A stretch of 17,112 bases of DNA from a virus (lineage: Duplodnaviria; Heunggongvirae; Uroviricota; Caudoviricetes): the IMG/VR virus record IMGVR_UViG_2541047699_000018; one strand, written 5' to 3'. Shown here in pieces: positions 2,960-8,624 of this stretch. The notes under the pieces are model-generated. The model ran no database searches. It was given only the letters and a program-made list of their open reading frames with translations, and had not been told where the DNA came from. Position 1 is the first letter of the stretch; the number at the start of each line of letters is the position of its first letter. A program made the position numbers and the translations under genes.

Positions 2960-4356
2960 AATAAACGCTCCGTTTTACTGCCCGACATGCGGTTATTGCT
3001 GTATCTGCGCGGATTGCCCGGCGTCATGGGTGTGGAAAGAACCCGGGCACTCTCCTGGTCCACAGGCAGAAAATGTCCGTTATGAAAACGCCGGTAAATG
3101 GTCCCGAGCGTGCCATTACGCTGTTTCGTGATGTTGATTTCTGCTATGCCTCTGGCCTGAGTTTCCGGGTTGTATACCTCATCCCTGTAAAGCATCAGAA
3201 TGATGTCGGCATCCGCCTCGATTTCCCCGGAGTTTTTCAGGTCCGAGTTCATTGGGCGTTTATTGGGTCTGGATTCCACGCCGCGGGAGAGCTGGCTCAG
3301 AGCAATCAGCGGAAAACCGCCGGATTTTGCCAGGCTTTTAAGTCCCTTTGAGATTTCCCCCACCGCAAGGTCGTGACGCCCCGTGCTGCGGGTTTTAATC
3401 AGGCCGAGGTAATCGACCACCACCAGCGCCGTTTCCGGGTGTTTCATCCGGTGGTGCTTCGTGGTTGCACATATCTCATCAATGGTCAGGTTTGCCTGGT
3501 CCACCATCCAGATATTACGCCCCGTCATTCGTCCCACGCCCTGCGAGAAACGCGCCCAGTCTTCATCTTCAAAACGGGCAACAGACTTAAGACGGGATAC
3601 CGGCATTCCACCGGCAGCAGACACCATACGTTCACCAATCTGGATGTTCGCCATCTCCATGGTGAACAGAAGCACGCCATGCCCCTGCTCAGTCACCTTG
3701 TCGATGATGTCCAGCGCAAGTTCGGTTTTCCCCATCGAAGGACGGGCGGCAATGAATACCAGGTCTCCGGGCTCCATACCGCCCGTTTTTGCGTCCAGTT
3801 CATCAATACCGGTCATCAGCGCCCTGGATTTCTCCAGTCCCTGATTGCGGCATTCAACACGGTCGACCACTTCCGGAAGGACATCATCAATGTGAACCGG
3901 CTGAATGACGCCCTTTCCGGTCGACAGTGAGGCCATCATGTTCTGCGCATCCTTCAGGGCATCCTCGGCTGCTTCACAGGTATACGCATCACGTAAATTC
4001 TGTAATGCTTCAGTCAGTGTTTTTTCTGCATCACGCAGTGCGGCATTGCGCCGCAACGCTGCGACATAGTGCTCCAGTGAAGACTTCACCCAGGTTTTGC
4101 GTCCGGTGTCGGTAATCACCGGGGCAAGTTCCGGCATCTCATTGCACAGCAGTACGGGGTCAATGACGCCGGATATGCGAGCCTGTCTGCAAATCCCCGC
4201 GTAAATATCCCGGTACTGACGCACAAAAAATACATCCGCCGGAAGTGTGGCCAGAATATCCATCACTTCCGGATCGGCCCCACGCAGAAAAAACGCACCG
4301 ATGACAGCGCCTTCCAGGTCATCGTTACGCCATGCCGGGGTGTTCTGGCTGGTCAT
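2956..4356 (-). CDS. Replicative DNA helicase, DnaB-like
   Basis: 466-aa ORF with Walker A (ARPSMGKTELALD), DnaB-type motifs (VVVDYLGLI, SQLSRGVESR) and the expected N-terminal domain. Confidence 0.9.
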   Translation of the reverse strand: MTSQNTPAWRNDDLEGAVIGAFFLRGADPEVMDILATLPADVFFVRQYRDIYAGICRQARISGVIDPVLLCNEMPELAPVITDTGRKTWVKSSLEHYVAALRRNAALRDAEKTLTEALQNLRDAYTCEAAEDALKDAQNMMASLSTGKGVIQPVHIDDVLPEVVDRVECRNQGLEKSRALMTGIDELDAKTGGMEPGDLVFIAARPSMGKTELALDIIDKVTEQGHGVLLFTMEMANIQIGERMVSAAGGMPVSRLKSVARFEDEDWARFSQGVGRMTGRNIWMVDQANLTIDEICATTKHHRMKHPETALVVVDYLGLIKTRSTGRHDLAVGEISKGLKSLAKSGGFPLIALSQLSRGVESRPNKRPMNSDLKNSGEIEADADIILMLYRDEVYNPETQARGIAEINITKQRNGTLGTIYRRFHNGHFLPVDQESARVLSTPMTPGNPRRYSNNRMSGSKTERLF

Positions 4357-6772: not shown

Positions 6773-6963
6773 GGACGCACCTCCACCGTAGTTACGTATT
6801 TAACCGGGCTACCTTTCATTGAGATGGTTTCACACATCTCTGCCGCTTTCAGTTCCGCTGTTTTTCTGGATTTATAGCGACGGTGCCAGACAGATACATC
6901 CGTGCGAACTGATACATCGTTTCTGTATTCCGTAGTGGAGATGATGATTTCGTAACTAATCAT
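6769..6963 (-). CDS. Hypothetical protein
   Basis: 64-aa ORF translationally coupled on both sides. Confidence 0.45.
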   Translation of the reverse strand: MISYEIIISTTEYRNDVSVRTDVSVWHRRYKSRKTAELKAAEMCETISMKGSPVKYVTTVEVRP

Positions 6964-7511
6964 GGGCGAACCTCCTTGTCAGAACCATTCAGCCTGGAAT
7001 CAACAAGTGCAGCGCCAAAAACAGCATCACCAACACGGTCGTACAGTTTGCTAGCCAGCGGAGATTCAACGGCCTTAAGCATTGGATAAAGCTGGCTTGT
7101 CCAGATTTGATGGATTTCACGCAAATGCAGGTATACGCCTCTGGCGTTTCGTGCGACAGCTGACATATCAACCGCGTCAGCACCAGATAAATTCTTCTCC
7201 ATCTGGTTAAAGGCGTTGATGTATGCCTCTTTGAACCGGGCTGCACGTTTGCCAGTAAAGCCCATAGCAAGGAACGCGAAGCCATCGCGGGTGATTTGAT
7301 AGCAAGGTAGTTTGCGGCCTGTGCAATCGGTGTAATCACTGGGCTGAAAATTCAGCTCAGTGAATTCAACAGAGCACTCAAGCGTCTGGATTTTTTGAAT
7401 AACGTTTTTGTGCTGCTTGCAGAAATATTCGGCAACGACCAAAGAAGAGGTAACAGCCTTCCCATGGATAACATCAATTTTAGGGTGAGTTTGGGTAGGG
7501 GTGGTTGCCAT
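6960..7511 (-). CDS. Phage regulatory protein, Rha family
   Basis: Rha signature KAVTSSLVVAEYFCKQHKNVIQKIQTL and DGFAFLAMGFTGKRAARFKEAYINAFNQME. Start chosen at ATG 7511 (SD gagga 8 nt upstream); the ORF is open to 7808 but that start has no SD. Confidence 0.7.
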   Translation of the reverse strand: MATTPTQTHPKIDVIHGKAVTSSLVVAEYFCKQHKNVIQKIQTLECSVEFTELNFQPSDYTDCTGRKLPCYQITRDGFAFLAMGFTGKRAARFKEAYINAFNQMEKNLSGADAVDMSAVARNARGVYLHLREIHQIWTSQLYPMLKAVESPLASKLYDRVGDAVFGAALVDSRLNGSDKEVRP

Positions 7512-7522
7512 AGTGACATCCT

Positions 7523-7728
7523 CATGTGCGAATTTTGAAAACTCACCACATGGGACGCCAATCACAGAGGTGGTGAGACGTACAGGGTTGGCGTAACCGG
7601 TCGCACATGACCCCGGCGCATCTTTCGATGCCCCTGCACGCCCCACCATAATTTGGATGTGAGGAAACGTGCGCAAAAAAACCGCTGAAGCGCGGTTATG
7701 CGCATGTGCGAATTTCAGGACGCCAATC
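7523..7728. repeat. Direct repeats catgtgcgaattt ... ggacgccaatc (two copies)
   Basis: Copy A at 7523-7563 (with a 17-bp insert) overlaps the Rha start/SD region; copy B at 7703-7728 is contiguous. Confidence 0.6.
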
Positions 7729-7893
7729 CCGGCACCCGCTTTATAAGGTGCGGAGACAGTGTAACGTCCCGAAATTGCAGAATCAATATTTGGTCTTGAA
7801 ATGATCATATAGCTGCTGATATCTTTAGAACTGTTCTTGGATGTTTCGGAGCCGTTTTATGCGAAACAGCTCCCCGTTATTGATGTTGAGTGA

Positions 7894-7917
7894 GCCGGGT
7901 TACTCCCGGCTTTTTTT
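7894..7917 (+). terminator. Intrinsic terminator oriented for the plus strand
   Basis: gccggg-ttact-cccggc followed by TTTTTTT on the plus strand, overlapping the stop of the minus-strand Rha-like gene. Confidence 0.5.
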
Positions 7918-8624
7918 CACCGCTGCCAACCAATAACCTGAAATAACCCCATTTTCGGGTGATACCAGCGAGTCCCTCGCGGTTCTGCTTCCTCCATAAC
8001 CCGATAAAAAGCAGCCATAAACGGTTCCACAGCAACAATTGCGCGACGTGACAACAATCCGTCCGGCGTCATGAACTCATGGGTGTCTGTAGGAATCTGA
8101 TAGGCGTTCACCAGATTGCGGCATTTATCATCTGACAAACCGGTTTTTGCTTTCAGTTGGCGATATCCGGCATAGCCCTCACGAATAGTGCCCTTTTTAA
8201 TTTGCTCGACTGTTTCAGCAACGTGGCTGACTTTTTCTTCCACCTGAGTGATCCGTTTCTGCTGACGAACTGCTTCAAGAGCCATCGCGGCAACCATTTC
8301 GATTTCGCTCATTGGCTTACGGATCTGTTCTTCCAGTTCGCGCCAGCGATCTACCAGGCGAGCAGTGAATTCAGGACAGAGCTGTGCGACGACAATGATG
8401 CTGTCGCGCTTACCTTGTTCTCCTTCAAACAGGTAATGCTCATATTGAACTTTAAAACCTAAGTTATTGATTCTTTCGGAAACCTCAATTTGAGGAGACC
8501 GGACAACGCCACCTTTGGCTAATGTTTCAATAGTGCGTTTCACATTGTCATGACGTTTACCCACCAGCTCTGCGATCTCAACGCTGGTCATGGATGCTTT
8601 GCCGTTAAAAATTGCGGTGTTCAT
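7917..8624 (-). CDS. Rha-family-like phage regulatory protein
   Basis: 235-aa ORF. N-terminal motif TSVEIAELVGKRHDNVKRTIETL. Strong SD (aggaga) before ATG 8624. Confidence 0.7.
   Translation of the reverse strand: MNTAIFNGKASMTSVEIAELVGKRHDNVKRTIETLAKGGVVRSPQIEVSERINNLGFKVQYEHYLFEGEQGKRDSIIVVAQLCPEFTARLVDRWRELEEQIRKPMSEIEMVAAMALEAVRQQKRITQVEEKVSHVAETVEQIKKGTIREGYAGYRQLKAKTGLSDDKCRNLVNAYQIPTDTHEFMTPDGLLSRRAIVAVEPFMAAFYRVMEEAEPRGTRWYHPKMGLFQVIGWQR

Follow-up and report, generated by a model that had tools for sequence, protein, structure and literature searches.

Introduction

Phage cassettes in which an antisense RNA of the C4 type controls a downstream gene have been known since 1990. In P1, the C4 RNA is cut from a precursor transcript by RNase P and represses the translation of its target. 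The source for the immI operon of phages P1 and P7 is said to be the 1990 study of Citron and Schuster. The immunity factor of P4 is known to be an RNA (cited in PMC4825925 and PMC10111431). In Gifsy-1, relief of C4 repression by another RNA, IsrK, was demonstrated experimentally (Hershko-Shalev et al. 2016, PMC4825925). The short form of IsrK binds Hfq and acts in trans to activate translation of a read-through mRNA (PMC4825925), and lysogens express both IsrK and STnc1160 at high levels (PMC7067206). In recent work on the regulatory region of Shiga-toxin phages (PMC8951638), "Rha/Ash domain proteins" are still treated as proteins whose function is unknown.

Here we describe a locus of this kind in a 17,112-nt stretch of phage DNA (IMG/VR record IMGVR_UViG_2541047699_000018), referred to below as the window. 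The interval 7512–7916, which separates two Rha genes, is very probably not empty and holds a minus-strand RNA cassette composed of an IsrK-like RNA and a C4 antisense RNA. The cassette is located inside the early, cro-side operon of the phage.

Results

Both genes bordering the interval are on the minus strand. The upstream one (7917–8624) encodes a 235-aa Rha/Ant-like protein matching PF09669 at 40 bits and PHROG 63, "anti-repressor Ant", at 167 bits. The gene taken here as the regulated one (6960–7511) encodes a 183-aa protein with a Phage_pRha domain (PF09669, 113 bits), Rha- or antirepressor-like, and the PHROG families that match it are labelled transcriptional regulator or anti-repressor. 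It is the first gene 3′ of the cassette, and the replication genes come next. Its start at ATG 7511 is supported by homologous cassettes, in which the next ORF is placed likewise: it begins with MATTPTQ or MATVP, and its distance to the b2 site described below is unchanged.

A first-pass annotation had regarded the interval as a non-coding gap of about 400 bp in an operon where every other leftward junction is a 4-bp overlap. Most junctions are indeed such overlaps, with one exception at 4353–5261/5263–6255. The gap itself stands if the gene starts at 7511, but two RNAs lie inside it, and from 7808 onward a frame without stops extends into the downstream gene. The resulting ORF, 6960–7808, has 282 aa and is carried by RefSeq (PGAP) as a single "Rha family" CDS, so that one can speak of a gap only with the gene start at 7511. 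Six terminator-like sites were found by the terminator scan within 6800–9000, against 2.3 ± 1.9 in shuffled sequences. A 601-base query across the gap had matches in 1188 of 5426 complete E. coli genomes, chiefly to the cassette part, and in about 300 phage records, many of which are Stx phages.

The IsrK-like small RNA occupies 7751–7675 on the minus strand and matches Rfam RF01394 (isrK) over the full model with 62.3 bits (gathering score 50, E = 1.7e-11). The c4-a1b1 model, RF03163, gave 23.9 bits on the same region, which is under its threshold. The RNA consists of a 5′ hairpin, a second hairpin that displays a1 (UUGGCGU, 7726–7720), b1 (UCGCACAUG, 7711–7703), and an intrinsic terminator with a stem at 7697–7680 and a U-run at 7681–7675, detected by the terminator scan. 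This last hairpin had been noticed earlier as a weaker minus-strand structure with a U-run near 7672–7696; it is present, and far from being minor it is a defining part of the cassette, the IsrK terminator. An isrK match lies directly 5′ of a C4-family RNA and an antirepressor-like gene in the window, in Gifsy-1, in P4 and in five related E. coli and Stx-phage loci.

Upstream of this RNA a promoter, PisrK, can be predicted at 7786–7758 by reading the sequence, with a -35 element TTGATT (7786–7781), a spacer of 17 nt and a -10 element TACACT (7763–7758), the latter 6 nt from the IsrK 5′ end at 7751. Its consensus score of 8/12 falls below the threshold of 9/12 used in the promoter scan, so the scan did not flag it. 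The promoter block ATATTGATTCTGCAATTYCGGGACGTTACACTG is identical, save for a single Y position, across loci whose upstream DNA is otherwise unrelated, and the homology among those loci begins exactly at the -35 of PisrK. By-eye inspection of PisrK revealed no LexA box. The CI repressor of the window belongs to the LexA family.

The C4 antisense RNA follows at 7653–7566 on the minus strand and matches Rfam RF01695 over its full length with 75.1 bits (gathering score 45, E = 2e-13). It folds into a 17-bp outer stem around two hairpins and exposes two segments, the b′ loop UCAUGUGCGA (7610–7601) and the single-stranded a′, ACGCCAA (7594–7588). A covariance analysis of the gap across related phages had been suggested, and it proved informative: among 36 distinct homologues the C4 stems covary strongly. 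Paired bases account for 96.4% of the stem cells, 164 cells are compensatory and 16 of 27 pairs show changes on both sides. None of 500 shuffles reached 96.4%, and slid controls gave 39–49%. The invariance of the third helix comes from the search pattern, which had fixed it. Many G-U pairs in C4 are compatible with the minus strand only. Among the cassettes, C4 has a length of 85–89 nt and the b′ loop of 10–13 nt, within conserved flanks.

The target region for C4 lies at 7561–7519 in the leader of the regulated gene and was delimited from inverted repeats and covariation. It comprises a2 (UUGGCGU, 7561–7555), b2 (UCGCACAUGA, 7531–7522) and the Shine-Dalgarno sequence GAGGA (7523–7519), which b2 overlaps; b2 ends 11 nt from ATG 7511. 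Each half of this region recurs in the IsrK-like RNA as a direct repeat: the b part, ATCCTCATGTGCGAATTT, is found at 7518–7535 and 7698–7715 with 89% identity, and the a part, GGACGCCAATC, at 7553–7563 and 7718–7728 with 100% identity. By complementarity these repeats are the predicted target sites, a1/b1 and a2/b2, of the two single-stranded segments of C4. The b′ loop is complementary to b2 at 10 of 10 nt (100%), a′ and a1 form an inverted repeat (7585–7594/7720–7729) of 90%, and 7 bp between a′ and a2 can be read from the sequence. The proximal repeat copy had been thought to overlap the Rha start; there are two copies, but this one ends 11 nt upstream of the ATG and overlaps the Shine-Dalgarno sequence.

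Whether the repeats are instead a functionless scar, left when the 5′ end of the Rha gene was partly duplicated, is decided by how they vary among phages. Such an origin, which was also raised in the first-pass annotation, would explain why two copies of a bipartite sequence lie 165–180 nt apart with one adjoining the gene start. Yet the C4 RNA between the copies exposes segments to which both are complementary, and the rest of the Rha 5′ end is not duplicated. In a sample of about 110 phage loci with 41 different b′ loop classes, 99 of 110 loci carried the complement of their own b′ loop at +47 to +56, compared with 28 of 1100 after loops were exchanged between loci; upstream, at about -94 to -100, the complement of the locus's own C4 loop was found in 81 of 110 loci, against 59 of 1100 with swapped loops. 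The b copies thus change together with the loop through 41 loop classes, and the P1 record annotates the same a1b1/a2b2 layout as functional binding sites. The scar can practically be dismissed, and the repeats are best taken as C4 target sites. The order promoter, hairpin, a1, b1, terminator, C4, a2, b2/Shine-Dalgarno, ATG is kept in 38 of 40 loop classes. Duplex energies did not discriminate for the a2/b2 leader, since 112 and 129 of 500 shuffled targets were equally good; they are uninformative here because the G-rich flanks give strong spurious duplexes. The argument for C4 and its targets is therefore one of covariation and not of duplex energy.

Alternatively, 7512–7808 could be protein-coding, as the N-terminal "Ash" domain of a 282-aa Rha/Ash protein, the RNA motifs being secondary or coincidental. 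The ORF 6960–7808 is open and is a single CDS in the PGAP annotation. Pfam PF10554 (Phage_ASH, cut-off 26) scores 42.8 bits on the residues of 7512–7808 alone and 53.8 bits on the 282-aa ORF, PHROG 821, 3960 and 995 also match the translation of the Ash region, a stop-free frame spans the whole module in 88 of 108 cassettes, and the Stx phage literature treats Rha/Ash as protein domains (PMC8951638). However, the founder of PF10554 is the old P4 "cI" ORF, which lies over the CI RNA (74.9 bits with the C4 model); in P4 the profile matches this obsolete ORF, while the real epsilon protein matches PF25738. In the window the PF10554 profile aligns with the translation of isrK plus C4. C4 and the b′ loop differ in length, between conserved flanks, by numbers not divisible by 3; the variable segments change in the manner of RNA-RNA partners, and the stems carry compensatory changes and G-U pairs. 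Moreover, the cassette's own transcription start is downstream of ATG 7808, a 7-U terminator falls within the 282-aa ORF, and about 20% of cassettes have stops in all frames. No clear third-position bias is seen across C4 and the leader (codon-position shares 0.31/0.30/0.39 and 0.34/0.36/0.30), in a comparison where the downstream-gene control is itself weak (0.34/0.29/0.37). Taken together, it is highly improbable that 7512–7808 is protein-coding, and the RNA cassette is the reading retained. The RefSeq label, by which the cassette becomes the N-terminus of a 282-aa "Rha/Ash" protein, is very probably a mis-annotation, and the Pfam "Ash" domain and several PHROG families would appear to be, at least largely, translations of the RNA cassette.

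A more limited form of translation is possible. An open frame of 46 codons (7649–7512, minus strand) runs from an AUG in the 5′ stem of C4 (7649–7647), in frame and with no stop, to ATG 7511, and corresponds to orf45 of Gifsy-1. Of 54 distinct segments, 39 have no stop in this frame, compared with 20 and 7 that are free of stops in the other frames; among 22 distinct 12-nt loops none has a stop in it, against 8 and 4 in the other frames. A stop-free frame through the cassette is thus commoner than chance, and translation from the C4-internal AUG, as for Gifsy-1 orf45, may occur. The distance from a1 to C4 modulo 3 was also considered as a coding sign and rejected: 82 of 108 cassettes fall in one class, but the distinct values are evenly spread over the three, the skew arising because a few abundant lineages dominate.

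A strong plus-strand terminator with no plus-strand gene nearby had also been noted; it is present at 7892–7917, and no plus-strand ORF accompanies it. An antisense or small RNA had been offered as an explanation for the interval. Two such RNAs do exist in the IsrK-like RNA and C4, but these established RNAs are on the minus strand and are not tied to this terminator, which is a separate neighbouring element outside the IsrK-C4 cassette. As detected by the terminator scan, its stem is GAGCCGGG/CCCGGCTT (7892–7899/7905–7912) with the loop TTACT and a T-run at 7911–7917; it abuts the stop codon of the upstream Rha gene, its last T falling in the TGA. Three sequence versions of the element, V1 to V3, were recognized, in which the stem and the T-run of 6–8 nt are invariant and the loop and flanks vary. 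The piece 7790–7925 occurs in 223 of 5426 E. coli genomes (about 4%) and, among the matches listed, always lies between the upstream Rha gene and the cassette. A scan of species-representative genomes for the terminator element returned two matches only, both in unrelated metagenome-assembled genomes, so the element in its exact form is essentially confined to E. coli prophages.

The reading that we tentatively favour is that the terminator ends an undescribed RNA of about 87 nt (7831–7917, plus strand), starting from a promoter-like site at 7796–7825 and divergent from the IsrK promoter. This site, TTGAAA-18 nt-TG-n-TATCTT, was predicted by the promoter scan, and its -35 is 9 nt from that of PisrK, back to back. 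In the two versions with about 70% identity to the window, TTGAAA-18-TATTTT with the TG is the sole promoter-like match in 600 nt, and the spacing from promoter to terminator is 67, 71 and 60 nt in V1, V2 and V3, so that predicted promoter and terminator are kept in all three versions. The candidate RNA would carry a conserved 5′ segment, GUUCUUGGAU (7833–7842), a hairpin at 7848–7873, a single-stranded spacer and the terminator. Two further trials were set aside: a small peptide, since the ORF from 7842 reads across the terminator and the versions do not share it, and an RNAalifold consensus of 12 versions, whose structure was meaningless as MAFFT misaligned the three length variants.

The terminator may also have no functional RNA behind it; it would then be what is left of a lost plus-strand gene, or an insulator against stray antisense transcription into Rha, cro or cI. 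The lack of a plus-strand ORF close by would fit this, as would the distribution of the element, a single homologous family present in 10 of the 105 distinct contexts that precede C4 cassettes and replaced by unrelated DNA in the Stx1a and yecE phages. A search of the window for targets of the conserved GUUCUUGGAU gave 5 matches at ≤3 mismatches against 6 expected, the candidate has no Rfam match, and a literature search for the exact sequences found none. Nevertheless, a relic should decay, whereas the stem and T-run are invariant although the neighbouring DNA has diverged to about 70% identity, the extended -10 promoter-like site is kept 60–71 nt upstream in all three versions, and the hairpin is retained at the same place in every version while being built from different sequence. 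A terminator without a functional RNA is possible but doubtful.

The pair of hairpins in 7826–7916 could instead act in the minus-strand transcript of the early operon, as a nut/put-like antitermination signal placed before the IsrK terminator or as a 3′ stabiliser of the upstream Rha mRNA. In the operon, the pair is flanked by early genes on one side and the first intrinsic terminator on the other, the region folds with z = -4.1 on the minus strand against -3.4 on the plus strand, and inspection of V2 and V3 shows a boxA-like CGCUCAAC ahead of the second hairpin. G-U pairs that only the minus strand can form are seen in V1, at an internal U-G pair and two natural C-to-U variants, but a GAAG to GAGG variant in V2 gives one on the plus strand only, and the wobble evidence conflicts: judged by G-U against A-C pairs in the hairpin 7848–7873, two variants favour the minus strand and one the plus. 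A nut or put site would need a second copy on the other early operon, and within 7750–11800 only 14-nt inverted matches at chance level were found. The strictly conserved run of 7–8 A has no role on the sense strand, where no U-tract follows the 7892–7917 hairpin; read from the plus strand, it forms the U-tract of a canonical terminator. Action in the early-operon transcript is for these reasons unlikely, and a plus-strand RNA ending at 7892–7917 is kept as the tentative reading.

Discussion

With family membership, secondary structure and loop-target covariation demonstrated here, the regulation can be proposed by analogy with the experiments on P1, P4 and Gifsy-1, on which the translation block, C4 processing, the IsrK decoy role and polarity would rest. 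Transcription from the promoter at 7786–7758 would start at about 7751, and most transcripts should end at the 7697–7675 terminator to give a 77-nt IsrK-like RNA containing a1 and b1. Read-through, together with transcripts from an upstream early promoter, would cross C4 (7653–7566) into the Rha leader and coding sequence. The a′ and b′ segments of C4 would then pair with a2 (7561–7555) and b2 (7531–7522). Since b2 covers the Shine-Dalgarno sequence and lies 11 nt from the ATG, this pairing should block ribosome binding, and through polarity C4 repression probably also reduces downstream transcription, including that of the replication genes. The IsrK-like RNA, a target mimic with both sites, could sequester C4 in cis or titrate it in trans, lifting repression. 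The variation of the b sites between phages suggests that the checkpoint, for immunity or induction, is specific to each phage. That the early operon contains a regulatory checkpoint was among the earlier proposals for the interval and is right in substance, the RNAs being directed at the ribosome-binding region of the next gene.

The main value of these results is corrective, as two RNA genes are concealed in the 282-aa "Rha family" CDS of RefSeq. To recognise an antisense-RNA checkpoint just ahead of the replication genes alters how induction and immunity should be modelled in the phages with this widespread cassette, many of them Stx phages. Modest leads are offered by the candidate plus-strand RNA and by the frame without stops that crosses C4. 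The former, if true, could act in cis, as an antisense to early-operon read-through or by convergent transcription against it, or in trans as an Hfq-type regulator. Like lambda OOP RNA, the candidate would be short, directed against an early rightward-type operon, derived from an intergenic promoter and ended by an intrinsic terminator where an early regulatory gene has its 3′ end. The overlap of OOP with cII is about 50 nt, whereas that of the candidate with its upstream gene is confined to the stop codon, and the two share no sequence similarity.

The cassette is an ordinary member of the class formed by P1 immI, P4 CI and Gifsy-1 IsrK, and the Rfam models match P1, P4 and Gifsy-1 in the same order. 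In Salmonella, the Gifsy-1 isrK-orf45-anrP region has, like the window, a promoter, IsrK with its terminator, a C4-family RNA (STnc1160/orf45 region) and an antirepressor-like gene, and in both the Rfam isrK and C4 models score above threshold. The Gifsy-1 isrK promoter, TTGACA-17-TATATT-6 nt, has the same geometry as PisrK. The start AUG of orf45, which lies inside the 5′ stem of C4, is present in the window at 7649 (PMC4825925). The orf45 frame has 45 codons and its TGA overlaps the anrP ATG, whereas the frame in the window has no stop and continues into the regulated gene. The two systems also differ in their b specificity sequences and in position, the Gifsy-1 cassette coming after the Q gene and that of the window lying between the cro-side regulators and the replication genes.

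The P1/P7 immI operon (c4-icd-ant) shares with the window a1, b1, C4, a2, b2 and a start codon (P1 record NC_005856). In P1, b2 ends 11 nt before the icd ATG, the same distance as to ATG 7511 in the window, and the C4 model scores 68.8 bits, against 75.1 bits here. The P1 leader is isrK-like (35 bits) and ends in a hairpin with a U-run; the IsrK-like RNA of the window is the equivalent of this a1b1 leader and of P4 seqA. The a and b sequences are UUGACAG and GUUAGUG in P1, and UUGGCGU and UCGCACAUG in the window. The P1 promoter is controlled by C1 through the operator Oc4 (Oc4/Op51). An icd ORF lies between b2 and ant in P1, whereas the ATG after b2 in the window opens the 183-aa Rha-domain gene directly. 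P1 Ant1 belongs to PF03374 (ANT/KilAC) and the window protein to PF09669 (Phage_pRha), with no homology between P1 Ant and the latter by BLASTP (E = 0.46), nor is Gifsy-1 AnrP homologous to it. For the 183-aa protein we only infer an antirepressor role, since it lacks this homology to P1 Ant or Gifsy-1 AnrP and no icd-like ORF precedes it.

In the P4 immunity region (seqA, CI RNA, seqC), the Rfam matches to isrK (60.8 bits) and C4 (74.9 bits) follow the order of the window, and in both phages an ORF with the Pfam "Ash" match lies over the RNA. The described action of P4 CI is mainly to cause transcription termination, whereas b2 in the window overlaps the Shine-Dalgarno sequence, like that of P1, and the downstream genes of P4 and the window differ. 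In both phages, however, the cassette precedes replication genes, and this shared position makes it plausible that the downstream operon in the window is also controlled by premature termination.

RNAs and target sites in the gap

The early operon of this lambdoid prophage runs leftward on the minus strand. A small gene in the Cro position (8848–8621) comes first, followed by a 235-aa Rha/Ant-like gene (8624–7917), the gap (7512–7916), a 183-aa Rha-domain gene (7511–6960), four small ORFs, the replication genes and, further on, a QuuD-type antiterminator. A LexA-family CI repressor gene (8885–9616) lies divergent from it. The CI gene is flanked on both sides by palindromes and inverted repeats (9671–9715; 8866–8879 with 9637–9650; 8897–8914 with 9669–9686; TGATACCTTAGTTAC / GTAACTGAGGTATCA and GATACTTTGTTATC / GAAACCAAAGTATC) that look like operator sites of a CI/Cro switch.

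When all Rfam families were compared with the 17-kb window, exactly two matches exceeded the gathering score, both in the gap and both on the minus strand: isrK (RF01394) at 7751–7675, with 62.3 bits against a gathering score of 50, and C4 antisense RNA (RF01695) at 7653–7566, with 75.1 bits against 45. A permissive search also placed c4-a1b1 at 7764–7712, below threshold. Together the two RNAs form a cassette that lacks annotation but is typical of its class, the phage immunity RNAs, which has long been known.

The first-pass annotation had noticed a minus-strand hairpin with a U-run and a bipartite direct repeat. The hairpin (7697–7680, U-run to 7675) is present and, from the position of the isrK match, is the terminator of the IsrK-like RNA. 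The repeat is present as well (7518–7535 / 7698–7715 and 7553–7563 / 7718–7728) and, judged by complementarity, is made up of the sites that C4 targets. Loop b' of C4 (UCAUGUGCGA, 7610–7601, minus strand as are all these sites) has a perfect complement in b2 (UCGCACAUGA, 7531–7522) and a 9-nt complement in b1 (7711–7703), and the single-stranded a' (ACGCCAA, 7594–7588) is matched by UUGGCGU in both a2 (7561–7555) and a1 (7726–7720). The b2 segment overlaps the Shine-Dalgarno GAGGA (7523–7519) and ends 11 nt upstream of the ATG at 7511. The suggestion that the repeats are the scar of a partly duplicated Rha 5' end was ruled out, both copies being complementary to a' and b'.

A promoter for the cassette is predicted at 7786–7758 on the minus strand, with TTGATT (7786–7781), 17 nt, TACACT (7763–7758) and 6 nt to the start; the isrK match begins at this predicted start, G7751. 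The promoter block ATATTGATTCTGCAATTYCGGGACGTTACACTG is identical save one Y position across loci with unrelated upstream DNA, and homology among those loci starts exactly at the −35. The promoter scores 8/12 and was not flagged by the promoter scan.

The identity, structure and pairing of the cassette RNAs are demonstrated here at the level of sequence; for their operation we infer a translation block, processing, decoy action and polarity from what is known of P1, P4 and Gifsy-1. C4, as a processed RNA or inside the long transcript, would use a' to pair with a2 and b' to pair with b2, and so cover the site where ribosomes bind ahead of the 183-aa Rha-domain gene. The IsrK-like RNA, bearing the same sites, would compete for C4, so that the balance of the two RNAs would set the level of the Rha-domain protein, and polarity probably extends this balance to the following replication genes; the position ahead of replication genes recalls P4. 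Transcripts from the early promoter would also have to cross the IsrK terminator. On this mechanism the cassette is the regulatory checkpoint that had been suspected within the early operon. In the regulated protein a Phage_pRha domain is recognised, and the PHROG families it matches bear the labels transcriptional regulator or anti-repressor.

Covariation and conservation across loci

A loose C4-core pattern with the b' loop left free found 120 viral contigs, which gave 113 distinct regions with 41 different b' loops of 10–13 nt. Downstream, 99 of 110 loci contain the reverse complement (at least 8 nt) of their own loop, placed +47 to +56 from the end of the pattern and mostly with GGA as its last bases; with loops swapped between loci, 8 nt or more was reached anywhere in just 28 of 1100 controls. 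Upstream, the complement is found in 81/110 loci, mostly at about −94 to −100 (controls 59/1100). On 36 distinct C4 sequences the Rfam C4 structure is 96.4% paired, with 16 of the 27 pairs changed on both sides and 164 compensatory cells; none of 500 shuffles was as good, and slid structures reached 39–49%. Many positions are G-U on the minus strand, which fixes C4 to that strand.

The order promoter, 5' hairpin, a1 hairpin, b1, terminator, C4, a2, b2/SD and ATG is kept in 38 of 40 loop classes, the other two being chance pattern hits. Related E. coli and Stx-phage loci likewise have an above-threshold isrK match followed by one to C4, and one of these loci has two cassettes in tandem. Tandem IsrK-C4 cassettes, each before its own Rha-like gene, occur in some prophages: two C4 cores lie 866 nt apart in loci L072 and L307, and L002 (2375–3219) is a further case. 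Within L072 and within L307 the two b' loops differ, the first being GGTCATGTGCGA, the same as in the window, and the second TCTCCGTTGACG, which suggests two orthogonal switches in series.

Coding potential of the cassette

The region had been described as a non-coding gap. Its features are all there, yet a frame opens at ATG 7808 and runs through the entire gap into the downstream gene (282-aa ORF). RefSeq makes this ORF a single 'Rha family phage regulatory protein'; the record is an E. coli chromosome, 99.8% identical, and no RNA genes are annotated there at the locus. Alternatively, then, 7512–7808 could be protein-coding with an 'Ash' domain: its translation matches Pfam PF10554 'Ash' and several PHROGs, and a stop-free frame spans the whole module in 88 of 108 cassettes. 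However, what the same PF10554 matches in P4 is an obsolete ORF, the 'cI gene product', on top of the CI RNA; epsilon, the true derepressor, matches PF25738 instead. Moreover, C4 varies from 85 to 89 nt and its loop from 10 to 13 nt, differences that are not multiples of 3; the variable segments act as RNA partners; ATG 7808 precedes the point where the cassette's own transcript would start; and the U7 terminator falls inside the frame. We therefore take the 'Ash domain' to be, at least largely, a translated RNA cassette. The translated isrK-C4 cassette (window 7512–7808; P4 8168–8584) is matched by PF10554 'Phage_ASH', NCBI 'ash family protein' and PHROG 821, 3960 and 995. PF10554 has served as an epsilon profile in one paper (PMC8628076), and 'Rha/Ash domain' proteins have been discussed for Stx phages (PMC8951638). 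The practical value of the finding is a correction of the 'Rha/Ash protein' annotation, widespread in E. coli and Stx-phage genomes.

A shorter frame of 46 codons (7649–7509, minus strand) begins at an AUG on the 5' side of the outer C4 stem and enters the regulated gene in frame with no stop. Of 54 distinct segments, 39 keep this frame open as far as the downstream start (other frames 20 and 7), and among 22 distinct 12-nt loops a stop in it never occurs (8 and 4 in the other frames). It is joined in frame to the regulated gene in 61/99 cassettes, the window included. Together with the Gifsy-1 orf45 data, these frame statistics suggest that ribosomes traverse C4 on unprocessed transcripts.

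The plus-strand terminator

The plus-strand terminator reported in the gap is present (7892–7912, T-run to 7917). An antisense or small RNA had been proposed for the gap; the isrK and C4 matches bear this out, both on the minus strand and neither at this terminator. The first-pass observation is confirmed and its interpretation partly right. Plus-strand matches in the permissive Rfam search were weak (at most 24.5 bits, far under gathering), fell to unrelated small-RNA families and were apparently driven by the terminator.

Comparison across phages shows that the terminator does not belong to the cassette. Stx1a and yecE-type phages have the same upstream gene and the same cassette, but ~230 nt of unrelated DNA, lacking the hairpin, joins the two (L124 1839–2068, L125 1713–1942); because this piece is open in frame with the cassette, a 340-aa 'antirepressor Ant' is annotated from the upstream gene's stop through both RNAs. 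Among 105 distinct contexts upstream of C4 cassettes, an antisense terminator is confined to this one homologous family. Of 5426 complete E. coli genomes, 223 contain the piece 7790–7925, and all the matches listed place it between the 235-aa Rha-family gene and the cassette; copies at 60–80% identity are found in 18 genomes, those listed being ~70% identical.

Three sequence versions of the piece exist. The A7–8 run and the GCCGGG/CCCGGC stem are invariant and the loop is variable; ~15 nt adjoining the stem and a segment of 10–13 nt, GUUCUUGGAU(GUU), are kept, and a second hairpin has a different sequence in each version (e.g. CUUC/GAAG vs CUGC/GCAG). In each version TTGAAA-18-TATYTT with an extended −10 TG is the sole promoter-like flag of the scan per 600-nt region, 60–71 nt upstream of the terminator. 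On the minus strand no U-tract follows the hairpin. In the window the −35 of the promoter-like site (7796–7801, plus strand) stands back to back with the predicted IsrK −35 (7786–7781, minus strand), 9 nt away. The simplest reading, to which we give somewhat less than an even chance, is a candidate plus-strand RNA of ~87 nt (~7831–7917) divergent from the predicted IsrK promoter. The evidence for it comes from three versions only, and the G-U pairs disagree as to which strand folds; no target was found in the window, and nothing corresponding in Rfam or the literature. That the terminator is a product-less relic or an insulator is rather unlikely, given the promoter-like site kept in each version. 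A sense-strand RNA element formed by the hairpins is improbable; a search for the second copy that a nut-like site would call for found none. Two small leads can be tested: the divergent candidate RNA, and the passage of ribosomes through C4.

Many IMG/VR loci (e.g. L137, L153, L158, L131, L134) that the hairpin-pattern scan also picked up form an unrelated, abundant family, with AAAAAAGCCGGG-N6-7-CCCGGCTC in a 5' leader (…CAAATCGCAGRSAC, hairpin, TYTSCAA…, SD, ATG) before genes that begin MHMQTQSVQAL… or MNTIVAPSNT…; here the same hairpin sequence stands in what may be a different regulatory leader.

Comparison with P1, Gifsy-1 and P4

In the GenBank annotation of P1, operator Oc4, two promoters, a1, b1, c4, a2, b2, icd and ant1/ant2 are given; Rfam scores are 68.8 bits for C4, 51 for c4-a1b1 and 35 for isrK. 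The b2-to-ATG distance is 11 nt, equal to that of the window, and the P1 leader likewise ends in a hairpin and U-run. The back-to-back −35s at 7781–7801 resemble the annotated divergent PsimA/Pc4. However, the window has no icd-like ORF, and its regulated protein is homologous neither to P1 Ant nor to Gifsy-1 AnrP; the locus therefore belongs with the RNA families and not with the P1 operon as a complete unit.

In Gifsy-1 the order is isrK (79 bits), C4 (69 bits), the antirepressor-like anrP and isrJ, and the experimentally studied isrK promoter has the same geometry as the one predicted here. This promoter gives a short terminated IsrK and a read-through mRNA, which is translationally silent because the orf45 (C4) region is paired with the central part of IsrK; supplied in trans, short IsrK switches on translation, and translation of orf45 is coupled to anrP (Hershko-Shalev et al. 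2016, PMC4825925). Gifsy-1 orf45 begins at the AUG in the C4 outer-stem 5' arm, the same AUG as that of the 7649 frame, and its TGA overlaps the anrP ATG. STnc1160 is a stable RNA downstream of IsrK within the orf45 region (PMC4825925), where the C4 match falls, and is hence taken as the C4 homologue; IsrK and STnc1160 are highly expressed in lysogens (PMC7067206). The orf45/STnc1160 region (Gifsy-1 34131–34214), compared only loosely with P4 CI before (PMC4825925), is a C4-family RNA, and the Gifsy-1 IsrK and P1 c4 systems are therefore one cassette seen from two sides. In P4 the isrK match (60.8 bits) corresponds to seqA and the C4 match (74.9 bits) to the CI RNA, and the cassette stands ahead of the replication operon, as it does in the window.
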